Shown one piece after another: positions 1-11,493 of a stretch of DNA of 64,000 nt. The stretch spans positions 1,048 through 65,047 of the forward strand of contig CAZDQE010000004.1 in NCBI GenBank assembly GCA_964507395.1. The letters run 5' to 3'. How positions within the stretch are numbered: the stretch's first letter is position 1; the number at the start of each line of letters is the position of its first letter. The notes under the pieces were generated by a model that searched no databases, had not been told where the DNA came from, and saw only the letters and a list, made by a program, of their open reading frames with translations. This DNA is from an uncultured Eubacteriales bacterium (GTDB lineage: Bacteria > Bacillota > Clostridia > Oscillospirales > Acutalibacteraceae). The translations under genes and the position numbers were made by a program.

Positions 1-115
1 CTAACTGCTGACGGCATCGCAGGTCCGAAAACATGGGTAAAATTGTAATATAAACCACTAAAGTGTATTTTTTTCTAAAATATCGTAATATTTTCTTGAA
101 AAGTGTAAAATTTAT

Positions 116-160
116 CCCCCTATTGTAGTTAACGCTACAGTAGGGGGATTTTTTTATTTT
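116..160 (+). terminator. Rho-independent terminator of an upstream (off-window) + strand gene
   Basis: Stem CCCCCTATTGTAG / CTACAGTAGGGGG (one mismatch), loop TTAACG, followed by ATTTTTTTATTTT. Confidence 0.6.
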
Positions 161-241
161 GTATCGCATTTCGTTATAATATATCGTTTTCAGGTTTATT
201 ATAGAACATATTGATATAATATAACGGAAGGGGCGAGTCGT

Positions 242-487
242 GTGATTAGAATTTTACTTTCAAAAAAATTAGGCGAGCTTCGATGGACTCAGGCTGATTT
301 AGCGAGAAAGACGGGAATAAGACCTAACGCCATCAGCGACATATACAATGAGATGGTCGACAGAGTGAGTTTAGAATATCTCGACAGAATATGTGCTGCA
401 TTGAATTGTGAACTTTCTGAAATTCTCGTGCGAGAGCCCACGGAGATTCCAGAAATGGAAAGTCGCTCCAAATCAATCCAAAAGTAA
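242..487 (+). CDS. XRE/Cro-C1 family helix-turn-helix transcriptional regulator (81 aa, GTG start)
   Basis: The sequence LGELRWTQADLARKTGIRPNAISDIYN...VSLEYLDRICAALNCELSEIL is a typical HTH_XRE fold pattern. GGAAGGGG RBS upstream. Confidence 0.8.
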   Translation: MIRILLSKKLGELRWTQADLARKTGIRPNAISDIYNEMVDRVSLEYLDRICAALNCELSEILVREPTEIPEMESRSKSIQK

Positions 488-492
488 GAAAA

Positions 493-537
493 AGACCGTA
501 GAAGGCACCTGGAAAGGTGTTTTCTATGGTCTTTATT
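493..537 (+). terminator. Terminator of the XRE gene
   Basis: Stem AGACCGTAGAA / TTCTATGGTCT (one G-U) enclosing an inner CACCT/AGGTG stem, then a T-rich tail. Confidence 0.55.
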
Positions 538-550
538 ACTGATAACATGG

Positions 551-658
551 GTGTGCTAATTCTTCGGTGCCGATGTCAGTCAATAAACCTTTGAGTTCAG
601 GATAAGGCATTGCGAAACGCTGGCTCAAATATCGCAATGAAGCGCCAAGCTCACCATC
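551..658 (-). pseudogene. cotJC: cotJC middle fragment (about codons 33-69 of a CotJC/manganese-catalase-family spore coat protein)
   Basis: Minus-strand translation 658->551 is DGELGASLRYLSQRFAMPYPELKGLLTDIGTEELAH. It is colinear with the family region GG.DGEL.A.LRYL.QR....LLTDIGTEE.AH and has no start codon of its own. Confidence 0.8.
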
Positions 659-675
659 CCGACAACTGATTTTAT
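655..675. repeat. attL-like junction: core CATC (655-658) plus element-side arm CAACTGATTTTAT (663-675)
   Basis: The same 4-bp core occurs at the other junction. The arm is the inverted complement (12/13) of the arm at 10868-10880. Confidence 0.7.
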
Positions 676-701
676 AGTTTGTCTTTTTTATTCTTTTATT
701 T

Positions 702-2291
702 TTAATCAAACGGATTGCTGAATTTATAATTTATAACAATCTCATTTGACTTGTATATATAAATACTTTCTATCAATTGACCTATAAGTAAGGGCGAAAC
801 AGTATCAAAAGAAACAATGCTTTTTATTAATTCAAAAACCTGCTCAGGCTTTTTCTTTTCTTTTGCCTGAGTTGCTTCTTCTTCAATTTTTGAAAGTTTC
901 TTTGATAATGTTTCCTTTTCTTCGTTAAACTCTGAAATCATTGTCAAAAAATCTTCTTCTGATATTATTCCTCTTACTTTATCCTCATACAGAGATTTAA
1001 TTATTCGTTTTATTTCAGTTAATCGTTTCAATATCGTTTCTGTTTCTTTTTCTGCATTTACAGCATTCAAATCAACATTTTCAATATTGAAGCTTTTGCA
1101 AAATTCGTCTTTGTTGTCAAATACTTTTTCAGATATGGTTTTCAGATGTGATAAAACATATTTATTTAAAACATCTTCCTTTATAACATTTCTCTGACAT
1201 TTATCTTTTCCGAATCTTGAATAACCTGAACACAGACATATAAATTCTTTCTTTTTTCCTACTCGTCTGAATGTCATCGGCATTTTGCAGTCACCGCAGA
1301 AGATAATACCGCCTAATAAGTGATTTACTCGTTCAACTGGATATTGCAATTGTGATTTCTGCTTTATTCGTTCCTGAACGGTGTTAAAATCTTCTTTGCT
1401 GACAATAGCTTCGTGTGTATCTTCTGCTATTATCCAGTCTTTGCGAGGGATTTTCTTAAATTTTTTCATTTTATAGCTTATCTTCTCGCTTCTGTGCTGT
1501 GCCATGTTTCCTATATATGTAGGATTCGTCAAAATACCCTTTATGGTTTCCGTTCTCCATACATTGTATTTTATATTGACATTGACATAAGAAAGATTTT
1601 GAACAGTCTTTTTATACTCCGTCGGAGTAGGTACAGATTCATCTGTTAAAGTTTTTGCTATCATTGCCATACTGTAACCGTTTAAATACATTGAAAAAAT
1701 ACGTTTTACTGTTTCAGAACCAATAGGGTCAATAATCAGTTTGTTTTTATCATTTTTAGATTTCAAATACCCAAACGGAGCAAAAGCACCGATAAATTGA
1801 CCGTTAATTCTTTTTGTATCCATAACAGTACGAATTTTCTTTGATATGTCTTTTGCATACATGTCGTTTAATACGGACTTAAACGGTGTCATATCGTTGT
1901 TAGCAGATTTTGCAAATGTGTCTATACCGTCACTTAAAGCTATATATCTGATGTTTTTCTGTGGAAAGTATCTTTCAATATAATAGCCTGTGTCTATGTA
2001 ATCTCTGCCAAGTCTTGATAAGTCTTTAGTTATCACCAAATTAATTTTTTTGTTTTCTATGTCAGCAATCATCTTCCTGAAATCAGGGCGGTCAAAATTA
2101 AGACCTGAATATCCGTCATCAATATAGATTTTTGTAATATTCCAACCTTTTTCAAGAACATAATTAACTAAATAGTCTTTTTGATTTTTAATGCTCATTG
2201 ACTGTCCGCTTTCTTCATCTTCACGGGAAAGTCTTAAATATAGACCGACATTATAAACCATTGTATCTAAGCAGTTATTTTGAGTTATCAT
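702..2291 (-). CDS. Large serine recombinase (resolvase/invertase N-domain + recombinase domain + zinc ribbon + coiled coil), 529 aa
   Basis: N-terminal VGLYLRLSREDEESGQSMSIKNQ (catalytic Ser context). Central recombinase domain. Cys cluster CGDCKMPM...CLCSGYSRFGKDKCQ. Lys/Glu-rich coiled-coil tail. Confidence 0.9.
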   Translation of the reverse strand: MITQNNCLDTMVYNVGLYLRLSREDEESGQSMSIKNQKDYLVNYVLEKGWNITKIYIDDGYSGLNFDRPDFRKMIADIENKKINLVITKDLSRLGRDYIDTGYYIERYFPQKNIRYIALSDGIDTFAKSANNDMTPFKSVLNDMYAKDISKKIRTVMDTKRINGQFIGAFAPFGYLKSKNDKNKLIIDPIGSETVKRIFSMYLNGYSMAMIAKTLTDESVPTPTEYKKTVQNLSYVNVNIKYNVWRTETIKGILTNPTYIGNMAQHRSEKISYKMKKFKKIPRKDWIIAEDTHEAIVSKEDFNTVQERIKQKSQLQYPVERVNHLLGGIIFCGDCKMPMTFRRVGKKKEFICLCSGYSRFGKDKCQRNVIKEDVLNKYVLSHLKTISEKVFDNKDEFCKSFNIENVDLNAVNAEKETETILKRLTEIKRIIKSLYEDKVRGIISEEDFLTMISEFNEEKETLSKKLSKIEEEATQAKEKKKPEQVFELIKSIVSFDTVSPLLIGQLIESIYIYKSNEIVINYKFSNPFD

Positions 2292-2312
2292 TTAATCCTC
2301 CTTTTCCTCAAA

Positions 2313-2480
2313 TTAATAACTACTCATAGACTGATTATATTTTACACTATTTTCTGTTAATTGCCAATGTTTTAAAGGCATTTTAACAAGATTATTTATA
2401 TGTATTTCTACTATCTTTTTAAAACTTACTTCCTCTTTTGTATAGTTAGCTGTTACTATATATTTATTTTCATTGAACAT
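2313..2480 (-). CDS. Small hypothetical protein (55 aa from MFNENKY...) immediately upstream of, and co-oriented with, the serine recombinase
   Basis: ORF with a GAGGTGG RBS 6 nt before the ATG at 2480. No recognisable motifs. Its position is compatible with a regulator or directionality factor, but this is unproven. Confidence 0.35.
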   Translation of the reverse strand: MFNENKYIVTANYTKEEVSFKKIVEIHINNLVKMPLKHWQLTENSVKYNQSMSSY

Positions 2481-2629
2481 ATACACCACCTCAATAAATT
2501 TTATGTGATACATATGTTCAATATGTAAATATCAAAAAAACGCCCAGCATGGACGCGTTTTATTAATTATGAAGAGGGGAGTTTACCCCATTCAGACAAA
2601 GGTTGCCTGAATGGGGAGTGTCTTGTATA

Positions 2630-5600
2630 TTAGCTGATTTTAATTCGCATTGCAGGTCGAATACCGATAGAAGTATCTTCAGCAGGCCATTCTCTTCCAT
2701 AAAACTCACCGCCGACATGTCCTTCTAATCCAACACCGAGAGCATTGTTACTAAAAATTCCACCTGCTGTTCTAAGTCTCCAATACGATTTTCCACAGTC
2801 ATCGCCATAAAAATTAACATCTGACGGAACATATAAACCTTGACATTTAGCATAGTCTGTACCCCAAGCCACTCTTGATATATCTGAACCTTTACTTGAA
2901 AAACCATAATTTGAATTTAGTGCTTCATTGTATGATAACAAAAATATTTTATCTGATGTTGATTTACTACTGAATTCTTTGTAATCAGTATCTGAACAGT
3001 TATTACTAACTATTGTCGACTTAATTTGATTTTTTTCGTTATCGCTAAAAGCTACTTTGTAGAAATCATTATTTAACCATTTTCTTATTGAGCTAGTCTC
3101 ATAATTATTAGCATAGTGTTTGCAATTAGAATCACTGTATAATGATAAATAATAGTCAGAAGGATTTTCTTTATAATAAATTGTATCCGTGAATGGTTGA
3201 GAGTCAATTATACTTTCGCACATAGCAAGTCCATTATTGGGGTCTAAAATTCGCCATTTTAATGGCTCATACTTAAACCAATATATCGTATTCTTGTGAT
3301 AACCGTTTTCATATTGCCAAGACCAATCACGTTCTTGAGATTCTTGTACATCTGTTGGTCTATATTTAGAAAAAGTTACTGCACGATATTTATTGCCTTT
3401 ATATGTAACCTCAGCATATTTCATGTAGTCACTTTTTACCATTGAGCCATACTCGCCATTTCCTGAGTAATAGCCGTATGATTTCCAGTTTAATGTCTGA
3501 CTGTTAAGAGCAGAAATCAAGTTCCTATCGGTTACTTTAGACTGTGGATATGAGCCAAAAGTAATAACATCTCCAACCTTATATTTTGTAGTGCTTGTTT
3601 TGTCAGATTTATTAGAATTTGACTCATTTTGATTATTTTTCGACAACAAAACAGCCTCAACAAGCTTGATGTTTTCAGAATTAACATTAATACTAATATA
3701 CCGTGTATCAGTATCAAGTAAATAGTCATCATGGGTAAAATGTAACGAGTAAATACCATAAGGAAGATTAAGAGAAAACTGCCCGTTCTTGTCAGTTGTT
3801 ACCGTGGCTATCAAGTCAGCATTCTCGCTTTCATTGTCAGTTACCTTAACAGTAACCCCTGAAATTGCTTTTCCTGTTGATATATCCTTAACCGTTCCTA
3901 TCACATTACCCATCTTCGGGGACATATATACTGTATTAAGATTAACATTTTCTACATCTTTTTCTATAACAGTTTTAACGGTTTTTGTTACAAAGTTATC
4001 AGATGTTATTGTCAAAGTATATGTTCCGACAGGCAAAGTCAATTCAAATTTTCCCGTTTCATCTGTTACTGTAGTGCGTTTTGCACCGTTTACATCTACT
4101 GTAACAGTAATATTATTTAATGGCTTGTCTGTATCTTTTTCTTTAACAAAAGCTGTAACTGTACCATAACCGATATCAGTTCTACGTATTGCTTCTTCAA
4201 CAGCCAGTTTTGCATTTACCATTTTATATGTATTGTTTAATGGGTGTTTTCCGTCAGGGTTATCATTTACAGTAATTGATGTATAATTACATACCATTTC
4301 TTTTACTTCTGCACCTGTGAAATTAGAATTTACAGACCAAACTAAACCACATACACCTGTAACTTGCGGTGCAGCCATTGAAGTGCCACTCAATAGACCG
4401 TAATTGTTATCAACAGTTGTACTATATATATCAGTTCCTGGGGCGCAAATATCAACTCTTGTCCCACCATTTGAATCTATTGCTTGCTGATACGTACCGT
4501 CAGAATTCTTTTTTGCATTACCGACAACAATAATTCTGTTAAGTATATCATGCTTCATTTTTTCGGTTGAAGCAACAACATTATTTTCAGTAACAGAACA
4601 CCAATAGCCATTGTTTGTTGCGTCCACAGCAATTTGTTCAATTGTGTTTCGAGCAACTTCTACAGGAGTACCATTTCCTGATGACTGGACAACCAAAAAA
4701 TCATAATTATCATTTAATAAATTTTCCATAACTTGACAAGCTTTTTTAGCCTGTTCATCTTTCCAAGTTTGAGAAAAATTTACTGAACCTCGTTCACTGC
4801 TATATACAGAAACAAAACCATTGTTGTCTATTTCTGTGGCACCTGAACAACCCAAAGAAAAGTTAACAACTTTTGCTCCTTTTGTTACTGAATCTTCAAG
4901 AGATTTCAATACCCGTGAGGCTGAATCCCATTGTTGTTTTCCTTTGGTTTCATTTGGTAACCAGTCACTGTAAATTATATTAACTTTTTTTAATATACCA
5001 GTTATTCCTTTATTATCGGCTATAGAACCAATAATTCCTGCAACATGTGTGCCGTGACTATTAGTAATTTCTTTTTTCTGTTTCTCATTCCATTCTTTAT
5101 AGTCATTTTCGCTTTCCATATTTTCCGTTGACGGGGTAAAAATTCCATTTAAATCTTCATGGTCTAAATCAAAACCAGTATCAACAACACCTATTTCTAT
5201 TTCAGAAAATCGGTTTTCATAGTTATATACAGAAGAAACTTCCATAGCTTCATATCCCCAGTCACCGATATCTTCCCAATATTTATATGCTACCATTGAT
5301 TCCCGAATATCAGTATCTGGAACTACTTTATCCGCAGTATTTATCATTGCAGCGAAAACTTCGTCTTTTTCCTCTAACTCACTACTTATTTTTTTTAGTT
5401 CTTTATATGATTTTTCATCAATTTTGATATCCCAAATCGAACCGCCCCTGCCTGCAATTTCTCCATTATACGGTTTTATGATTTCAAGTATTTCATCTTC
5501 TGTGACATCATCTTCAAATATAACTAAAAGAATATTATTTACATAGGTTATACCAGTTTCTTCATCATATCTTACCTTGCTTTCGTCAAATGTATAGGAA

Positions 5601-5983
5601 GTTCCACTATCGTAATGAATATTAATTGTTTCTGTTGTACTTCCTTTATCAGTTTTAGCGGTAATAACAATTTCGTTTTCTCCAGAAACTAAAAATACTT
5701 CTTTGATATACCAATTGTTTTTATTGACTACAGCTTTTCCAGACCAATAAACATCTCCATTTTGATATCCCTCATAGATTATCTCCTCAACAGTATCAGA
5801 AGTTTCTATTGTTCCTGAAAGACTTGTTTTGCTTTTAATTGTGTCAAAGTCTTTTTGGTCAATGGTTAATTTTATGTTGCTGTTATTATCAGAGTTATTC
5901 AGACAAAATATAGCCACTATAATAGCCGAAACTACAACTGTTATAGCTAAAATTAGAATTAGCATTTTTTTCGATTTCTTCAT
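2630..5983 (-). CDS. Secreted subtilisin-like serine protease (peptidase S8), 1117 aa, with CarboxypepD_reg-like beta-sandwich repeats and a C-terminal FGSYPQ-type (DUF6273-like) domain
   Basis: N-terminal signal/anchor MKKSKKMLILILAITVVVSAIIV. Catalytic triad contexts VVDTGFDLDHEDL, HGTHVAGIIGS, GTSMAAPQVTG. Two GxV.D..TGK...V.V repeats. C-terminal VGDVITFGSYPQSKV... segment. Confidence 0.85.
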   Translation of the reverse strand: MKKSKKMLILILAITVVVSAIIVAIFCLNNSDNNSNIKLTIDQKDFDTIKSKTSLSGTIETSDTVEEIIYEGYQNGDVYWSGKAVVNKNNWYIKEVFLVSGENEIVITAKTDKGSTTETINIHYDSGTSYTFDESKVRYDEETGITYVNNILLVIFEDDVTEDEILEIIKPYNGEIAGRGGSIWDIKIDEKSYKELKKISSELEEKDEVFAAMINTADKVVPDTDIRESMVAYKYWEDIGDWGYEAMEVSSVYNYENRFSEIEIGVVDTGFDLDHEDLNGIFTPSTENMESENDYKEWNEKQKKEITNSHGTHVAGIIGSIADNKGITGILKKVNIIYSDWLPNETKGKQQWDSASRVLKSLEDSVTKGAKVVNFSLGCSGATEIDNNGFVSVYSSERGSVNFSQTWKDEQAKKACQVMENLLNDNYDFLVVQSSGNGTPVEVARNTIEQIAVDATNNGYWCSVTENNVVASTEKMKHDILNRIIVVGNAKKNSDGTYQQAIDSNGGTRVDICAPGTDIYSTTVDNNYGLLSGTSMAAPQVTGVCGLVWSVNSNFTGAEVKEMVCNYTSITVNDNPDGKHPLNNTYKMVNAKLAVEEAIRRTDIGYGTVTAFVKEKDTDKPLNNITVTVDVNGAKRTTVTDETGKFELTLPVGTYTLTITSDNFVTKTVKTVIEKDVENVNLNTVYMSPKMGNVIGTVKDISTGKAISGVTVKVTDNESENADLIATVTTDKNGQFSLNLPYGIYSLHFTHDDYLLDTDTRYISINVNSENIKLVEAVLLSKNNQNESNSNKSDKTSTTKYKVGDVITFGSYPQSKVTDRNLISALNSQTLNWKSYGYYSGNGEYGSMVKSDYMKYAEVTYKGNKYRAVTFSKYRPTDVQESQERDWSWQYENGYHKNTIYWFKYEPLKWRILDPNNGLAMCESIIDSQPFTDTIYYKENPSDYYLSLYSDSNCKHYANNYETSSIRKWLNNDFYKVAFSDNEKNQIKSTIVSNNCSDTDYKEFSSKSTSDKIFLLSYNEALNSNYGFSSKGSDISRVAWGTDYAKCQGLYVPSDVNFYGDDCGKSYWRLRTAGGIFSNNALGVGLEGHVGGEFYGREWPAEDTSIGIRPAMRIKIS

Positions 5984-6049
5984 TTTTACACACTCCTTAA
6001 ATTATTTGAAAGATAATGCATAATTCGCAAAAAGCTACGAAAAATAATG

Positions 6050-6062
6050 ATAAAATCAGTTG
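6050..6062. repeat. Third, internal copy of the serine-recombinase arm motif ATAAAATCAGTTG
   Basis: 13/13 identical to the reverse complement of 663-675 and 12/13 to 10868-10880. Lies between the S8 gene start and the left 28-bp inverted repeat. Confidence 0.7.
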
Positions 6063-6069
6063 ACCCCCT

Positions 6070-6097
6070 TTTTCGTGAAGTTTACAACTTTGCGAAA
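6070..6097. repeat. Left copy of a perfect 28-bp inverted repeat (TTTTCGTGAAGTTTACAACTTTGCGAAA) bracketing the tyrosine integrase gene
   Basis: Exact reverse complement of 7420-7447, checked base by base. Confidence 0.9.
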
Positions 6098-6142
6098 AAA
6101 AAGCAAGAAGCCCTGATTTTCAAGGTTTCTTGCTTTTTTTTG
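6094..6142. terminator. Bidirectional intrinsic terminator downstream of the integrase gene
   Basis: A-run, stem AAGCAAGAA / TTCTTGCTT, then T8. It reads as a terminator on both strands. Confidence 0.6.
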
Positions 6143-6158
6143 ACCCATTTTTTGACCC

Positions 6159-7250
6159 CTAAAAGCAAACCGCAAGTTTTTCTATATTCTGCTTTTTGTA
6201 CTCTATTGTAGGGTGTACATATCTATCTAATGTAAAGCTGACTGTTGAATGTCCCAGTATTTCGCTTAATGTTTTTATATCAATATTTTGTTCAACTGCT
6301 CTTGTTGCAAATGTATGTCTTAATGCATGATAATTAATATTTCTGATTCCTGTCTGTTCCAAATATCTTTTAAATCTGTATTGATATGCTCTCGGCTCTG
6401 TGTACTTTCTTTCATTACCTGTTAAAATATATTCTTTCGGCAAACTGTATTTTGATAATATTTTAAGTTCTGATAATAAAAATTCGGGAATAGGTATTTT
6501 TCTTATTGATTTTATACTCTTGGGAGTGTCTATTATAATTTTGGTCTTGTTTTCTGTGCTTTTATCTGTGACTGGTATTCTTTGAAGAGTTTTTGTAATG
6601 CTTATTATTCCTGTATTTAAATCTATATCCTGCCATTGTAAAGCACAGACTTCACCTAAACGAAGTCCTGCAAATAGTGATAATAAAATTCCTATATTTT
6701 CACGGTTAATATCTTGTTTGATTTTGTTTACTAAAAATTCCTGTTCGCTTTTGCTTAATACTTCTAAATCTTTCCTCGGTACGATAGGTCTTGCGAAATC
6801 GTATATTAAAGGTTGTATATATTTTTCTCTTTCTGCGTATTTCAATATCTGAACAAGTACAGCTGTTATATCCTGAATACTTTTTTCTCCTAACTTGCCC
6901 TGTTGTATCTTATATTTAATAAATGAATTTATATTGTTTCTGTCAATTTTAGATATATGAGTATTATTAAAATATGGTATAAGGTGTCTGTTCATTATTC
7001 CGTTATATCTTGCAATGGTAGATTGTTTATTTTTGATTTCTTTTTCTTTAAGCCACTCCTTACATAAGATTTCAAAGGATATTTTAGATTTTATCGGTTT
7101 ATCTTCTTTTAATTCTGATGTTCGCATTTTGCTTTTTACTTCGGTGTAGGTGGGAGCATAAATTGATTTATATTTGCCTGTATCAGTTAAAACTCTTGCT
7201 TCCCAACGTCCGTCTTTTCGTTTTCGTATATTTTCTCCTCGTTTCGGCAT
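6159..7250 (-). CDS. Tyrosine site-specific integrase with N-terminal arm-binding-type domain (363 aa)
   Basis: N-terminus RKRKDGRWEARV (Tn916-Int-like arm-binding fold pattern). Catalytic contexts AGLRLGEVCALQW, HALRHTFATRA, LGHSTVSFTLDRYVH (R..HxxR..H..Y). Confidence 0.9.
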   Translation of the reverse strand: MPKRGENIRKRKDGRWEARVLTDTGKYKSIYAPTYTEVKSKMRTSELKEDKPIKSKISFEILCKEWLKEKEIKNKQSTIARYNGIMNRHLIPYFNNTHISKIDRNNINSFIKYKIQQGKLGEKSIQDITAVLVQILKYAEREKYIQPLIYDFARPIVPRKDLEVLSKSEQEFLVNKIKQDINRENIGILLSLFAGLRLGEVCALQWQDIDLNTGIISITKTLQRIPVTDKSTENKTKIIIDTPKSIKSIRKIPIPEFLLSELKILSKYSLPKEYILTGNERKYTEPRAYQYRFKRYLEQTGIRNINYHALRHTFATRAVEQNIDIKTLSEILGHSTVSFTLDRYVHPTIEYKKQNIEKLAVCF

Positions 7251-7364
7251 AGATACCAGTCCTTTCTGACCCTTATTTTGACCCCCAATAAACAGAAAAA
7301 TGATGATGTTTTAATCTTTGAGAATAAAAATATCTTTCTGCACCTTCTAAATTAGCGTAAAATA

Positions 7365-7393
7365 TTGACATTTGCTGAAATTTTATATAAAAT
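7365..7393 (+). promoter_or_regulatory. Near-consensus sigma-A-type promoter (TTGACA-17 bp-TAAAAT) facing rightwards, just inside the right 28-bp inverted repeat
   Basis: TTGACA at 7365-7370, a 17-nt spacer, TAAAAT at 7388-7393. Confidence 0.45.
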
Positions 7394-7419
7394 TTAGGTG
7401 AAATAAGAAAGATTTTGGC

Positions 7420-7447
7420 TTTCGCAAAGTTGTAAACTTCACGAAAA
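7420..7447. repeat. Right copy of the perfect 28-bp inverted repeat
   Basis: TTTCGCAAAGTTGTAAACTTCACGAAAA is the exact reverse complement of 6070-6097. Confidence 0.9.
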
Positions 7448-7507
7448 TACAAGTATGTAATCTCATTTTTATGTTATAAATATATTCAATTAAATCCATT
7501 ATATTCC

Positions 7508-7536
7508 AGACAGGCTGAAAAGCTTGTCTTTTTTTG
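7508..7536 (+). terminator. Possible intrinsic terminator (weak stem) about 120 nt downstream of the 7365 promoter
   Basis: Stem AGACAGGC / GCTTGTCT (one G-U), loop TGAAAA, then a T run. Confidence 0.4.
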
Positions 7537-7621
7537 TCTGCAAGTGTTCTTTTTGGTTGATACAAAAGTGTTCTTTTTTATCAAGACACACCATAATATT
7601 AAAATAGGAAAAGTAAAGTCC

Positions 7622-7740
7622 GCAACTGCCTATATTACACACAAACGAAGTTTTACGAGTGTGAGGGGTCTCGACTTTGCACCCGAGACCCCTCACACTC
7701 ATCATGGTAAAACTTTTCGTTATGTGTGTTATGCAGTTGC
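7622..7740. repeat. ~120-nt imperfect palindrome with a perfect 17-bp core stem; candidate oriT or structured leader of the Replic_Relax operon
   Basis: Core GAGTGTGAGGGGTCTCG (7657-7673) / CGAGACCCCTCACACTC (7684-7700). Outer pairings ACACACAAACGAAGTTTTAC~GTAAAACTTTTCGTTATGTGTGT and GCAACTGC (7622-7629) / GCAGTTGC (7733-7740). Confidence 0.75.
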
Positions 7741-7801
7741 TGATGTGTTGTGTGTTTTGGTGTTTGTATTTGTTTGTTAGTTTAGTGTGTGGTGAGTTGT
7801 T

Positions 7802-8431
7802 GTGGGTATAAGATTAGTTGAGAGAGATTATTTAATATTAAGAGAGATAGACAGGTGGAGAGTAATTACAGGTAAGCAGATATGTAAGGTAGCTGGATTT
7901 TCGGGTCAGAGGTCTTGCGACAGAAGGCTTCATAAGCTTTTGATTGCCGGGATTCTTGACAGAAAGCGAATATTATACGGAATCCCGGCAATCTATGAAT
8001 TGACCCCAAGGGGAAAAGCCATTATCGGTATACCGATAAAAAACGAGCGTGTACGAGTTGAACAAATCGTACACGATATGGCCGTATTGGATACGGCTAT
8101 ATATTTCAGCCATAAATATGCAATTGCCTTTTCAGATATTAAATCTGAAAAACAATTACATAAACAAGACGGGTTTGCTGTTCGCAAGCACCGCCCCGAC
8201 TTTGTTTTCACAAAGAATAACAAATCTTTTTGTGTCGAGGTCGAGCTTACAATGAAATCAAAGGAAAGATTTAGTAAAAATATTATTGCTAACTTTACAG
8301 ATTACTATATTCAAATATGGGTAGTTCCTGACTTTAATTCAAAAATATATGCGTTTCTTTGTGAGATGAAAGAAAGCTATCCAAATATAAAAATCATTGA
8401 TATTAATGAGGTGAAGTCTTATAACGTTTGA
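7802..8431 (+). CDS. Replication-relaxation (Replic_Relax) family protein, 209 aa, GTG start
   Basis: N-terminal winged-helix pattern LVERDYLILREIDRWRVITGKQI...CDRRLHKLLIAGILDRKR...YELTPRGKAI. C-terminal nuclease-like HD..RPDFVF...CVEVELTMKSKER. Confidence 0.7.
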   Translation: MGIRLVERDYLILREIDRWRVITGKQICKVAGFSGQRSCDRRLHKLLIAGILDRKRILYGIPAIYELTPRGKAIIGIPIKNERVRVEQIVHDMAVLDTAIYFSHKYAIAFSDIKSEKQLHKQDGFAVRKHRPDFVFTKNNKSFCVEVELTMKSKERFSKNIIANFTDYYIQIWVVPDFNSKIYAFLCEMKESYPNIKIIDINEVKSYNV

Positions 8432-9828
8432 AGCTTTATTTAATCGGTTTAACTAAATACGGAAATGCAATTTTACTTACAGTTATGGCAATAGCCTTGT
8501 TTTTCATTTGCCTTGAAGCAAGAAAAAGCTTGATTATAAAGAAGCATTTTAACTTTTGGAGAGATTTAAAAGCTATGAACAGGAAAATAAAGCCTAATTT
8601 AACAAGTAGTAAAGACAGCACTTTTTTAGGCTACAGCCACAAAAAGCCTGTATACATTCCCGATAATTGCAAACATTGCTTTGTTTGCGGTACAACAGGA
8701 AGCGGAAAGACCGTTGTTCTTTCAAACTTCATCAAGCATGGTGCAGAAATGAAATACCCCATGCTTATAGTTGACGGCAAGGGCGATATTGGAAACGGCT
8801 CAATTTTGGAAATAACAAAGCATTTTGTAAACAGGCAAAAATTATATGTTATAAACCTTGCAGACCCGATAAAATCTGATAAATACAACCCTTTCAGATA
8901 TGCAAGTCCGACAATGTGCAAGGATATGCTGATTAATATGACGGAGTGGAGCGAAGAACACTATAAACTGAATACAGAAAGATATCTGCAAAGGCTTATT
9001 ATACTGTTACAGCAAAATGACATTCCCCTGTCGTTCAACACTATTATTAATAATATGAGTGTTGCGAATTTCAACGCTTTAAGTTCAAGGTTGCTGAAAG
9101 CTGAAATAATAAGCAAGCAAGAACATTTATTAAACCTTAATATTTCTGATACTTGCGGTAAAATCGCACAAAATGCAAGTGCAAGGTTCAGCACTATTGC
9201 AGAAAGTGAGTTCGGCTCAATATTTGCTGATAACGGAATAGACATATACACGGCAATTAAAGAAAACGCAGCTATATTGTTTGTTTTAAATCCTTTACTT
9301 TATCCTGAAATTTCACCTTTAATGGGTAAACTGATATTAATTGATGCTAAACAAGCAGTAAATAAATGTTTTAATTCAGGACTTGAAAGAGCGTTTTACA
9401 TATTTGACGAGATAAATAGTTATGCTTCACCGACTTTAATAGATTTAATAAACAAGTCAAGAAGTGCAAATATTACATCAATACTTGCAACACAAAGTTT
9501 GTCGGATTTAGATTTTGCCTGTAATGAAGCATTTAAAGAACAAGTAATAGAAAATACAAATAATTATATTGTTTTAAGACAGAACAGTTCTGTAAATTCC
9601 GAGCATTGGGCGAATGTTTTAGGAACAAAGTCAACTATTGATGTAACTTATCAATTACAACAAAGGGGGTATTTAGAAACATCTGAAACAGGTTTAGGAA
9701 GTGCAAGACGTGTAAGAGAATTTTTATATCACCCTGATGATATTAAGATTTTACAGGTTGGAAAAGGTATTTTTATGTCAAAGGATAACGGCTATCACTC
9801 AAAAATAGATATTATAAAGCCATTTTAG
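8428..9828 (+). CDS. Type IV coupling protein-like ATPase (VirD4/TraG/TraD family, TraM-recognition-domain type), 466 aa
   Basis: N-terminal TM segment. Walker A CGTTGSGKT. Walker B YIFDEINSY. ILATQSLSDL motif typical of the FtsK/TraG superfamily. Start overlaps the upstream stop. Confidence 0.8.
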   Translation: MKLYLIGLTKYGNAILLTVMAIALFFICLEARKSLIIKKHFNFWRDLKAMNRKIKPNLTSSKDSTFLGYSHKKPVYIPDNCKHCFVCGTTGSGKTVVLSNFIKHGAEMKYPMLIVDGKGDIGNGSILEITKHFVNRQKLYVINLADPIKSDKYNPFRYASPTMCKDMLINMTEWSEEHYKLNTERYLQRLIILLQQNDIPLSFNTIINNMSVANFNALSSRLLKAEIISKQEHLLNLNISDTCGKIAQNASARFSTIAESEFGSIFADNGIDIYTAIKENAAILFVLNPLLYPEISPLMGKLILIDAKQAVNKCFNSGLERAFYIFDEINSYASPTLIDLINKSRSANITSILATQSLSDLDFACNEAFKEQVIENTNNYIVLRQNSSVNSEHWANVLGTKSTIDVTYQLQQRGYLETSETGLGSARRVREFLYHPDDIKILQVGKGIFMSKDNGYHSKIDIIKPF

Positions 9829-9840
9829 GAGGTTTGTTTT

Positions 9841-10710
9841 ATGGAGAAAAGAGGCGGATTTTTCAAATCAAATTGGGCATATTTAGTATGGTTTGCAATT
9901 TATTATACTATCGCAGTTTTTCTGATTTATATGTGTACAAGCGATTTTGTAATAAGCTTTTTTCTATCTTTTTTCATTTATGGTGCTTCTGTAGGACTTG
10001 CATTATCTCCTGTTGGAGAAAGTATATTACGGTTAATGCAGGGAATTAAACCAATTCAGACAGAACAAGACAGAGAATATTTAATGCCGATTTTTGAAGA
10101 AGTGTATGCAGAAGCTTTAAAATTCACTCCCGAACTAAACGAAGATATCGAACTATACATATCTGAAAGTATGACAGTAAATGCCTTTGCTATCGGAAGA
10201 AAGACAATAGCAGTAACAAGAGGAGCAATATATACCTTTAGTCCCGAGGAATTAAAGGGAATATTATCCCATGAATTCGGTCATATGGCGAATGGTGATA
10301 CAAAAGCCTTACTTATTAATGTAGTAGGAAACGGATTTTTCTCTTTAATAATCTTTGTTTTTCGGTTTATAATGTTGTTAATACAAAATATTACGGTTGC
10401 TTTTAGCGGTAAAAATATTGTTGTTGCTGTACTTGCAATAATTTCATTTTTATTCAGATTACTTGTTGATTTAGGAATAATTGTGTTTGTTTTCTTGGGT
10501 AATGTGATTTTAGCACTCAATAGCAGATACAGTGAACTGCTTGCTGATGAATACGCTTTTCAAATCGGCTATGGCGAAGAACTAAAGAATTCTTTGTATA
10601 TAATCAGTAAATTGAGTTTACCTGAAAAATTAACGCTTATGGAACGCTTGACAGCTTCACACCCATATACAACAGCAAGAATTGAAAAACTTGAAGAATT
10701 AGGGGCTTAA
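9841..10710 (+). CDS. Membrane M48-family (HtpX-like) zinc metalloprotease, 289 aa
   Basis: HEFGHMANGD (HExxH), several TM segments, C-terminal SHPYTTARIEKLEE typical of M48. Confidence 0.8.
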   Translation: MEKRGGFFKSNWAYLVWFAIYYTIAVFLIYMCTSDFVISFFLSFFIYGASVGLALSPVGESILRLMQGIKPIQTEQDREYLMPIFEEVYAEALKFTPELNEDIELYISESMTVNAFAIGRKTIAVTRGAIYTFSPEELKGILSHEFGHMANGDTKALLINVVGNGFFSLIIFVFRFIMLLIQNITVAFSGKNIVVAVLAIISFLFRLLVDLGIIVFVFLGNVILALNSRYSELLADEYAFQIGYGEELKNSLYIISKLSLPEKLTLMERLTASHPYTTARIEKLEELGA

Positions 10711-10721
10711 ACAAGCCACAA

Positions 10722-10830
10722 TATCCCATACCCCTTAATTGATAATACTGCCAAAAGTAAGAAAATCAGACTTGCAAAACGCAGGTCTGATTTTCGCTTT
10801 TGGCATATTCTTTCTTTTGGGTATGGGATA
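10722..10830. repeat. Three-tier 109-bp palindrome at the right end of the element; the inner hairpin functions as a bidirectional terminator
   Basis: Outer TATCCCATACCC (10722-10733) / GGGTATGGGATA (10819-10830). Middle GCCAAAAG / CTTTTGGC. Inner GAAAATCAGAC(TTGC) / (GCAG)GTCTGATTTTC with A/T flanks. Confidence 0.75.
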
Positions 10831-10867
10831 ATATTTTAGTCAAGAGTAGTTATTAATTTGATGTGTC

Positions 10868-10886
10868 ATAAAATCAGTGGTTCATC
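10868..10886. repeat. attR-like junction: element-side arm ATAAAATCAGTGG (10868-10880) plus core CATC (10883-10886)
   Basis: Mirror image of the junction at 655-675. Confidence 0.7.
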
Positions 10887-10982
10887 GGGTCCGCCATACT
10901 GAGTAATAATGATTTTTGCAAGCTTCGGATTGGGATTCTTAATATTTACAGGATACTGTAATCTCTTTTCATATTGGAACAT
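10884..10982 (-). pseudogene. cotJC: cotJC N-terminal fragment (codons 1-33); as it stands the frame ends at 10866 after 5 foreign codons
   Basis: Minus-strand translation is MFQYEKRLQYPVNIKNPNPKLAKIIITQYGGPD, then EPLIL-stop. The ATG overlaps the cotJB stop (TAATG). Confidence 0.85.
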
Positions 10983-11242
10983 TAGCAGTCACAACCTTCT
11001 TTCTCCCATGGCCATGGGTTTTTAATCCATTCAACGCCCTGTGCGTTAGTAGTTGAAAGCTTCCAGCATTTTTCTTCAAATTCCTCGCGAAGCATCAGAT
11101 ATTTTTCTTTATATTTATTATAAAGTGCAATGGCTTCCGTATCGCATGTATGTGTGTCAAGATAAAGGTGAAGATCCCACATGACAAATGCAGTTGCAGA
11201 AAGCTGCCTTAAAAGATCATTGTTTCTCATCATTTGCAACAA
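10982..11242 (-). CDS. cotJB: Spore coat protein CotJB
   Basis: Family hallmark FVMWDLHLYLDTHTCDTEAIALYNKY. 86 aa. Sits between a CotJA-like ORF and the cotJC start. Confidence 0.85.
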   Translation of the reverse strand: MLQMMRNNDLLRQLSATAFVMWDLHLYLDTHTCDTEAIALYNKYKEKYLMLREEFEEKCWKLSTTNAQGVEWIKNPWPWEKEGCDC

Positions 11243-11493
11243 CCTCCGAGAAAAGGCTTGTCGAGGCAGGGGAATGCTGTTCCTCTTTCCAATGCTTTAC
11301 ATTCATCATAAAGCTCCGTCATTTCCTGAAAAGGCACAAATGCCATAGCTACCGGTGTACATTCGGGAAATTTTCCTTCGGGCTGAATACAACATTTTTT
11401 TACATAACTATAGTTGCTTCTGTCCGTTTGTCTGTAGTAATTGTCACGCATCATACGAGAATTACCTGACGAATAATCATACATTCTTTGCAA
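11230..11493 (-). CDS. cotJA: Spore coat-associated protein CotJA
   Basis: VAMAFVPFQEMTELYDECKALERGTAFPCLDKPF matches the CotJA pattern (AMAYVP.Q...Y....AL..GT.FP.L..PF). The start may be the TTG at 11493 or the ATG at 11484. Confidence 0.8.
   Translation of the reverse strand: MQRMYDYSSGNSRMMRDNYYRQTDRSNYSYVKKCCIQPEGKFPECTPVAMAFVPFQEMTELYDECKALERGTAFPCLDKPFLGGCCK

Follow-up and report, generated by a model that had tools for sequence, protein, structure and literature searches.

The cotJC gene of the cotJA-cotJB-cotJC operon lies in pieces near the left end of the 64-kb stretch of DNA analysed here (the window). Its N-terminal part is separated from a short middle fragment by a first insertion, element 1, and the middle fragment itself gives way to foreign sequence that runs off position 1 of the window. 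The preliminary description of this DNA took the latter as a second break by a separate element. The locus raises the questions of whether cotJC is truly cut twice, what the second element is and exactly where it entered, and how often this gene is interrupted elsewhere. The break point at element 1 is referred to below as site 1 and that at the second element as site 2; the features concerned are collected in Table 1.

Table 1. Features of the cotJ locus and its two insertions (window coordinates)
Feature	Position	Strand	Evidence or remark
Endolysin C-terminus, last 15 codons and stop (LTADGIAGPKTWVKL, then stop)	1..48	plus	Translation and alignment with L002 lysin
Terminator-like hairpin and T-run after lysin gene	114..149	plus	16-bp stem, 7 GC pairs; conserved in L002
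XRE-family HTH gene, 81 aa, prophage-terminal, pointing at junction	242..487	plus	HTH_26 E 7e-17, HTH_3 E 7.5e-10
Long perfect hairpin, 20-bp stem, T-runs on both strands	491..534		dG -32.4 kcal/mol, z -9.85
P' arm of LSR-type attP, TTACTGATAACATGGGTGTGCTAAT	536..560	plus-strand sequence	cotJC strand codes (E)LAHPCYQ-stop
Predicted crossover dinucleotide	561..562	TC plus / GA cotJC strand	Second Glu codon of GTEE; centre of 25+2+25 dyad
cotJC middle fragment, codons ~34-65	563..657	minus	Between the two insertions; tblastn and Pfam Mn_catalase
Element 1, first insertion, ~10.2 kb	654..10886	minus	Pfam genes; arms AAAATCAGT round GATG core
Element-1 LSR	702-2291		Pfam
Element-1 S8 peptidase, 1117 aa	2630-5983		Pfam
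Element-1 tyrosine integrase	6159-7250		Pfam
cotJC N-terminal fragment, codons 1-33/34	10883..10982	minus	Pfam Mn_catalase 1-33 (10866..10982); tblastn
cotJB	10982-11242	minus	Pfam CotJB
cotJA	11230-11493	minus	Pfam CotJA

A Second Break in cotJC

The insertions lie in a sporulation gene, the broken gene being the cotJC of a cotJA-cotJB-cotJC operon identified by Pfam matches to CotJA, CotJB and Mn_catalase. Both cotJC fragments score above the Pfam cut-off for the Mn_catalase family, and intact relatives align to the Mn catalase structures 6J42 and 1JKU. A tblastn search of the 64 kb with full-length CotJC recovers two pieces only, residues 1-36 (10982..10875) and residues 33-68 (658..551), the latter with 92% identity. 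Residues 69-198 have no match in any frame of the whole window; the upstream part of the gene is present and the downstream part absent, and the claim that positions 1-550 lack the rest of cotJC extends to the full 64 kb. The gene resumes at about position 657 on the minus strand, reads DGELGASLRYLSQRFAMPYPELKGLLTDIGTEELAH and then ends in PCYQ and a stop codon; the corresponding minus-strand ORF (536..709, ...SCRDGELGASLRYLSQRFAMPYPELKGLLTDIGTEELAHPCYQ followed by the stop) matches Mn_catalase positions 32-69 (E 3e-9).

Past this point, intact CotJC homologues read ...TEELGHLEMIGAIV..., and P0206, an intact homologue with a 91% identical N-terminus, is among those that continue ...TEELGHLEMIGAI.... 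The homologues run on past the break, which is therefore a true break and not clade-specific sequence. Natural divergence of CotJC after the His in this clade, which the preliminary description had itself named as the outcome that would count against it, was checked and is ruled out by the LEM that follows in intact relatives. The second break by a separate element running off the window is real, and that element is a prophage.

Phage-Derived Sequence at the Junction

Only 550 bp of phage DNA lie within the window. The same junction is found in loci from three other samples (L002, L003 and L004), which align base for base with window positions 1-600. In these loci cotJA and cotJB are followed by a truncated cotJC (72 aa, ...TEELVHLCYQ and stop) and then by the same arm, hairpin and XRE gene, the homologues of the last aligning closely at the DNA level and in the same position. 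The lysin of L002 is a 215-aa protein with Peptidase_M15_3 and PG_binding_1 domains, and its end, ...LTADGICGAKTWAKL and stop, aligns with the product of window positions 1-48. Beyond the lysin, L002 encodes an XhlA-like holin region, tail-fibre and baseplate proteins and a Sheath_initiator protein. Lysis and structural modules of a prophage are therefore found beside the att site in L002, the window itself holding the lysin C-terminus only. Judged from this homologue, the second element is a tailed prophage with its lysis end next to the upstream part of cotJC.

The hairpin between the XRE gene and the junction was more stable than any of 200 shuffles and is kept in L002 and L003; it is likely a bidirectional terminator that would end the XRE transcript and stop cotJ read-through into the prophage. 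The only contig found to carry the element-1 LSR, from an independent Logan assembly (SRR14307658), breaks off within the PG-binding domain of the lysin, one base past window position 1. This suggests a repeat or strain-variable point there, such as a second related prophage.

No deposited phage matched window positions 1-560 by blastn, and a protein search found no record of the exact XRE protein. Homologues with 60-70% identity occur in at least 80 IMG/VR viral contigs, often ~0.3-3.5 kb from the contig end among the matches listed. These homologues are widespread and mostly unlinked to cotJC, and the XRE gene was rejected as a marker of the window phage family. Among the same listed matches a small HTH gene is frequently located near a prophage end, and in L093 the XRE homologue adjoins the other junction in the opposite orientation. 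The terminal XRE protein is a speculative candidate for a directionality factor; immunity, a moron function or excision control are possible roles.

The Attachment Half-Site and the Position of the Crossover

Between the hairpin and cotJC lies a sequence with the character of an LSR attachment site, i.e., two inverted arms of ~25 bp round a dinucleotide, one arm of which is present in the window and its partner in other genomes. The arm and the predicted crossover dinucleotide span positions 536-562 and make up one half of an attP site. In cotJC orientation the junction reads GGCACCGAA-GA-ATTAGCACACCCATGTTATCAGTAA; in reverse complement, the 25 nt that follow GA give TTACTGATAACATGGGTGTGCTAAT. 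This window arm, followed by TC, agrees at 18-19 of 25 positions with the P arms of L199, L208 and L167, which have the mirror orientation and the same 25-nt spacing. Those P arms stand before C-terminal pieces of cotJC: the attL of L199 reads TTACTGATAACATCACGGTACTGAC joined to GAGCTTGCTCAT, with GA directly after the arm, and the attL of L208 and L330-L333 reads TTACTGATAACATTTTTGTACCAAC joined to GAACTGGCTCAC. The P' arm is conserved in L002-L004, L253 and L255, and the complete dyad is present in L286 and in Dorea phage DO134P1. In the window an exact 13-mer of the arm occurs only once, as would be expected with the partner arm outside it. The minimal attP of SPbeta SprA is 52 bp long: symmetric arms of 25 bp flank a central dinucleotide, and the site has a conserved core in common with attB (PMC5499854). 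Two 25-nt mirror arms round a dinucleotide would give a 52-bp dyad of exactly this architecture at cotJC.

The preliminary description had placed the break at 550/551, directly after the His codon. The break stands, however its position does not: the crossover is most likely at 561-562, ~10 bp further to the right, where the bridging Glu ligand is encoded. The codons for L-A-H probably belong to the phage arm and mimic the host sequence. Truncated CotJC products at other elements diverge right after GTEE (EEYVHQCWK, EEYDPYCWI, EECAPVCLK, EESAPRCWK and others), attL junctions consist of phage sequence up to GA(R)CT, and joining L286 in silico at GA restores GTEELAHLEM. The closest intact attB, that of L464, reads GGCACAGAGGAATTGGGGCACCTTGAAATG, and attR is similar to attB through position 551. 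The attP and attB would share a core-like sequence of ~21 bp (551-571) centred on 561-562, with 550/551 as the presumed outer edge of this similarity. Since attR and attB are similar over 551-571, the exact crossover cannot be fixed by sequence alone.

Recombinases at the Second Break Site

In the loci of the attL junctions above, L199 and L208 among them, and in about 20 others, including L068, L081, L168, L170, L201-L240 and L286, an LSR gene ends immediately upstream of the junction and is co-directional with the C-terminal piece of cotJC that follows. The encoded proteins carry Resolvase, Recombinase and Zn_ribbon_recom domains and match the PHROG integrase category; they are 40-53% identical to one another, ~30% identical to the LSR of L005 and 20-24% identical to that of element 1. 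Among solved structures, SPbeta SprA/YokA is the closest to them (E 1e-42, 149 bits). Neither the AAAATCAGT arms nor the GATG core of element 1 are found at the second junction, as the preliminary description had reported; the arms there are of another kind (TTACTGATAACAT...). The earlier conclusion that a different recombinase was at work is upheld for specificity, as the different arms imply, but not for enzyme class, the relatives' enzyme also being an LSR.

In L208, repressor genes lie upstream of the LSR gene, followed by replication genes on the opposite strand; the late and lysis genes would therefore face the other junction, which agrees with the orientation in the window. An isolated counterpart is available in the gut Clostridia phage DO134P1 of Dorea (OP172779.1), whose LSR is 69.7% identical to that of L208 and whose gene order is that predicted for the window prophage. 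A spacer of 90 bp separates its convergent LSR and amidase lysin genes, and the best dyad in it has 25-nt arms (18/25) round GA; however these arms share only a general pattern with the window arm, and no XRE gene lies between lysin and attP.

Complete insertions at site 2, with both cotJC flanks on one strand, are present in L286, L042, L065, L070 and L076. Cross-matching of IMG/VR contig names among the C-terminal, N-terminal, attR, attL, GGPDGE-pattern and bare-arm scans (for GGPDGE, among the matches listed) found no contig on which a prophage of the window type has both its lysin/XRE end and its LSR end. Likewise, no N/C contig pair of the TTACTGATAACAT class was found among the IMG/VR scans, and a protein search linking N- and C-terminal cotJC fragments gave no match.

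In L005 (10001-11888; GCA_965358175.1) and L254, site 2 is taken by another phage, inserted the opposite way round with its LSR abutting the N-terminal fragment; site 2 is therefore used in both orientations by different LSR lineages. The his-operon/cotJ synteny of L005 is the same as in the window. In L093 (4277-5353) a group II intron-type reverse transcriptase ORF lies between the holin and tail-fibre genes of the prophage at site 2.

Element 1 and the Independence of the Two Insertions

Element 1 lies 32 codons upstream of the second insertion and differs from it in both LSR and att arms. Joining the N-terminal and middle fragments in silico at the GATG core restores ...QYGGPDGELGAS.... 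In addition to the genes in Table 1, Pfam matches identify a replication-relaxation (relaxase-like) protein, a TraG/TrwB-type T4 coupling protein and an M48 peptidase. Element 1 looks composite: a mobilisable element may have become nested in an LSR element or fused to it.

The nearest relatives of the element-1 LSR among the fetched loci (~250 bits) are encoded by L072 (10433-11992), L078 (1587-3143) and L084 (14810-16546). They are located at a third break site of cotJC (site 3, described below) and not at site 1, with different arms (GTTGTTCTTA...); related LSRs seem to have switched sites within cotJC.

Site 1 is uncut in L002-L004, which carry the second junction without element 1, and the two cotJC insertions are therefore independent events, as had been proposed. 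With ~95 bp between them, the attB sequences of sites 1 and 2 should be free of overlap, in agreement with independent occupancy.

Origin of the Second Insertion

Very probably, window positions 1-562 are the lysis-module end (attR side) of a tailed prophage that was put into cotJC by an LSR of the SPbeta-SprA type. Its attP would be a dyad of ~52 bp, two 25-nt arms round GA, with the 3' end of the integrase gene on one side and the lysis/XRE end of the phage genome on the other. This attP would have recombined with the cotJC sequence GGN-ACN-GAR-GA/R-YTN-GSN-CAY, which codes for the Glu-x-x-His manganese-ligand motif. Recombination would have joined the upstream part of cotJC to the P' arm, terminator, XRE gene and lysin, which is the arrangement seen in the window, and the downstream two thirds of the gene, predicted on the same strand beyond window position 1, to the integrase and P arm. 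For the window genome, the integrase and C-terminal piece are predicted from the related genomes in which both flanks are observed. The insertion is independent of element 1. By analogy with SPbeta and skin, the prophage might be excised on phage induction or in the sporulating mother cell, giving an attB that would read GGCACCGAAGA-ACTNG... and an attP of the form arm-GA-arm. Excision of the prophage together with element 1 would rebuild cotJC; the earlier statement that reassembly requires two excisions is supported.

The missing C-terminal piece could also mean that the phage inserted and that its far end, the C-terminal part of cotJC or both were later deleted or rearranged, leaving positions 1-562 as a relic and cotJC as an irreparable pseudogene. 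In keeping with this, no C-terminal piece is found in the 64 kb, both assemblies break inside the lysin gene, and some related loci have shortened recombinase genes (a short LSR-like ORF in L065 and L070); cotJC is in any case already inactivated by element 1, and there may be no selection for repairability. However, the P' arm is intact and correctly spaced and is strongly conserved in L002-L004, neither the XRE gene nor either terminator is damaged, and related genomes have kept both flanks; a prophage of ~40-55 kb would place its other end outside the window anyway. Such a dead end is quite improbable. A mis-join of metagenomic sequence at the junction would fit an apparently metagenome-type assembly whose contig ends inside a phage gene, and is scarcely credible: window positions 1-6100 are identical in the independent Logan assembly, and the junction is therefore not a local assembly error; the same junction is present in three other samples and falls exactly at a recurrent att site. 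An assembly artefact was rejected.

Insertion by a tyrosine integrase with a long identical core (~GAAGAATTAGCACAC) would make 550/551 the true core edge and L-A-H a sequence shared by host and phage. The attR does match the intact attB of the closest relative through GAATT-G--CAC, and cores of 10-14 bp are common in many clostridial phages (PMC3442830). However, attL junctions with the same arm do not have the host ACNGAR before GARCT and read CTGAC or CCAAC instead, the arms form the 25+2+25 dyad typical of an LSR attP, the products at other elements diverge right after GTEE, and it is an LSR and not a tyrosine integrase that lies beside the junction in every relative of this arm/junction class. 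This reading is very unlikely and was rejected.

cotJC as a Recurrent Insertion Target

The suggestion that this short part of cotJC is an insertion hotspot proved far stronger than had been guessed. GTDB species representatives were scanned with the central part of CotJC, and the resulting 80 loci, mostly from Oscillospiraceae and their relatives, were read in frame. The gene is intact at 46 loci and broken at 32 (78 of the 80 being assessable), with the remaining two at a contig end; six of the 80 loci have cotJC broken twice. Breaks recur at four positions: site 1, ...QYGGPD/GELGA (6 loci; window 654-657); site 2, ...GTEE/LGHLEM, together with a sub-site before GTEE (17 loci; window 561-562); site 3, DLAAE/QKAR (9 loci); and site 4, HFQRFGE/ (6 loci). 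By alignment to Mn catalase and its known ligands, namely Glu35, Glu66, His69, Glu148 and His181 in the Lactobacillus plantarum enzyme, the four break sites are the four manganese-ligand motifs, the most conserved DNA of the gene. Among gut Oscillospiraceae and their relatives, serine integrases make wide use of site 2 as attB, and phages land there recurrently.

In L042, L065, L070, L076, L037, L370, L049, L072, L078, L084 and L286 the two flanks of a single insertion are found on the same strand, which proves that these breaks are insertions. Genomes other than that of the window also have cotJC in three or four pieces. L065 (4001-15526) belongs to an isolate, Intestinimonas massiliensis Marseille-P3064, and is cut at sites 2 and 4. 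In L286 (9896-19400) there are cuts at sites 1, 2 and 3, and sites 1 and 2 each have an LSR of their own. A middle fragment of ~32-36 codons, produced as in the window by cuts at sites 1 and 2, is present in L286 and also in L265, L267, L274, L275, L266, L322 and L324; several IMG/VR contigs are among these. C-terminal pieces of cotJC were found in 263 stretches of viral contigs in IMG/VR, of which the best 80 are mostly fragments starting at site 1 or site 2. Protein searches with 68-aa and 41-aa queries returned only proteins of up to ~1.7 times the query length, and a third search gave fragments as well as full-length proteins; the apparent dominance of truncated CotJC is therefore in part a search artefact and was not used as a frequency.

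It is conceivable, though we advance the idea tentatively and consider it unlikely, that cotJC is a multi-slot landing pad in which the DNA of each ligand motif serves as attB for a distinct LSR lineage, with two or three unrelated elements resident at once, as in the window. If this were so and all elements were excised in the mother cell, expression of the coat catalase would need a multi-step programmed gene reassembly, and cotJC expression would be open to veto by any one of several independent phages or elements. We know of no such multi-element reassembly described for sporulation genes.

Relation to Known Systems

Interruption of sporulation genes by prophages or skin-like elements with an LSR is established for sigK (skin), spsM (SPbeta) and others, and removal of such elements in the mother cell is an established model of phage-host regulatory switching. 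SPbeta in the spsM gene of Bacillus subtilis (integrase SprA, directionality factor SprB) is likewise a tailed prophage with an LSR that splits a mother-cell sporulation gene. It resembles the cotJC case in SprA being the closest solved structure to the LSRs at the cotJC site, in the 52-bp attP dyad and in the attB-like core, however the target (spsM rather than cotJC), the central dinucleotide (AA as against a predicted GA) and the arm sequences differ, the relatedness to SprA is distant (149 bits), and cotJC carries a second element here. The skin element of sigK (SpoIVCA) and skin-like elements also interrupt a sporulation gene with an LSR-bearing element, whereas the element described here, judged from L002, would be a prophage with lysis and tail genes and not a degenerate remnant. 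In cyanobacteria, the heterocyst genes nifD, fdxN and hupL are interrupted by elements that carry a recombinase and are removed in terminally differentiated cells, some genes carrying several; developmental genes are split in the same way, but the phylum, the recombinases and the elements are different.

A skin-like element has been reported in cotJC of Laceyella sacchari, with cotJC listed as a target (bioRxiv 10.1101/2022.02.25.481979), and Abe 2013, as cited elsewhere, also gives cotJC as a target. These published mentions of cotJC, made in passing, come without the site, the att structure or multiple occupancy, and the searchable literature yielded no account of the att structure of the site, the four-site ligand pattern or the frequent multiple occupancy. 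LSR elements in sporulation genes are of a kind already known; the att structure, four-site pattern and multiple occupancy are the more interesting by-product. With at least four serine-integrase sites and common double and triple occupancy, cotJC offers a natural set of orthogonal LSR/att pairs aimed at one short conserved gene, and a system in which to ask whether the excision of several elements is coordinated during sporulation or whether cotJC is simply a dispensable safe harbour. In practical terms, the 66-75-aa 'manganese catalase' ORFs in MAG annotations are mostly split cotJC genes. In Clostridioides difficile R20291, the CotJC-like manganese catalase gene CDR20291_1465 adjoins prophage phi027 (PMC11222575), and this may be the same association.
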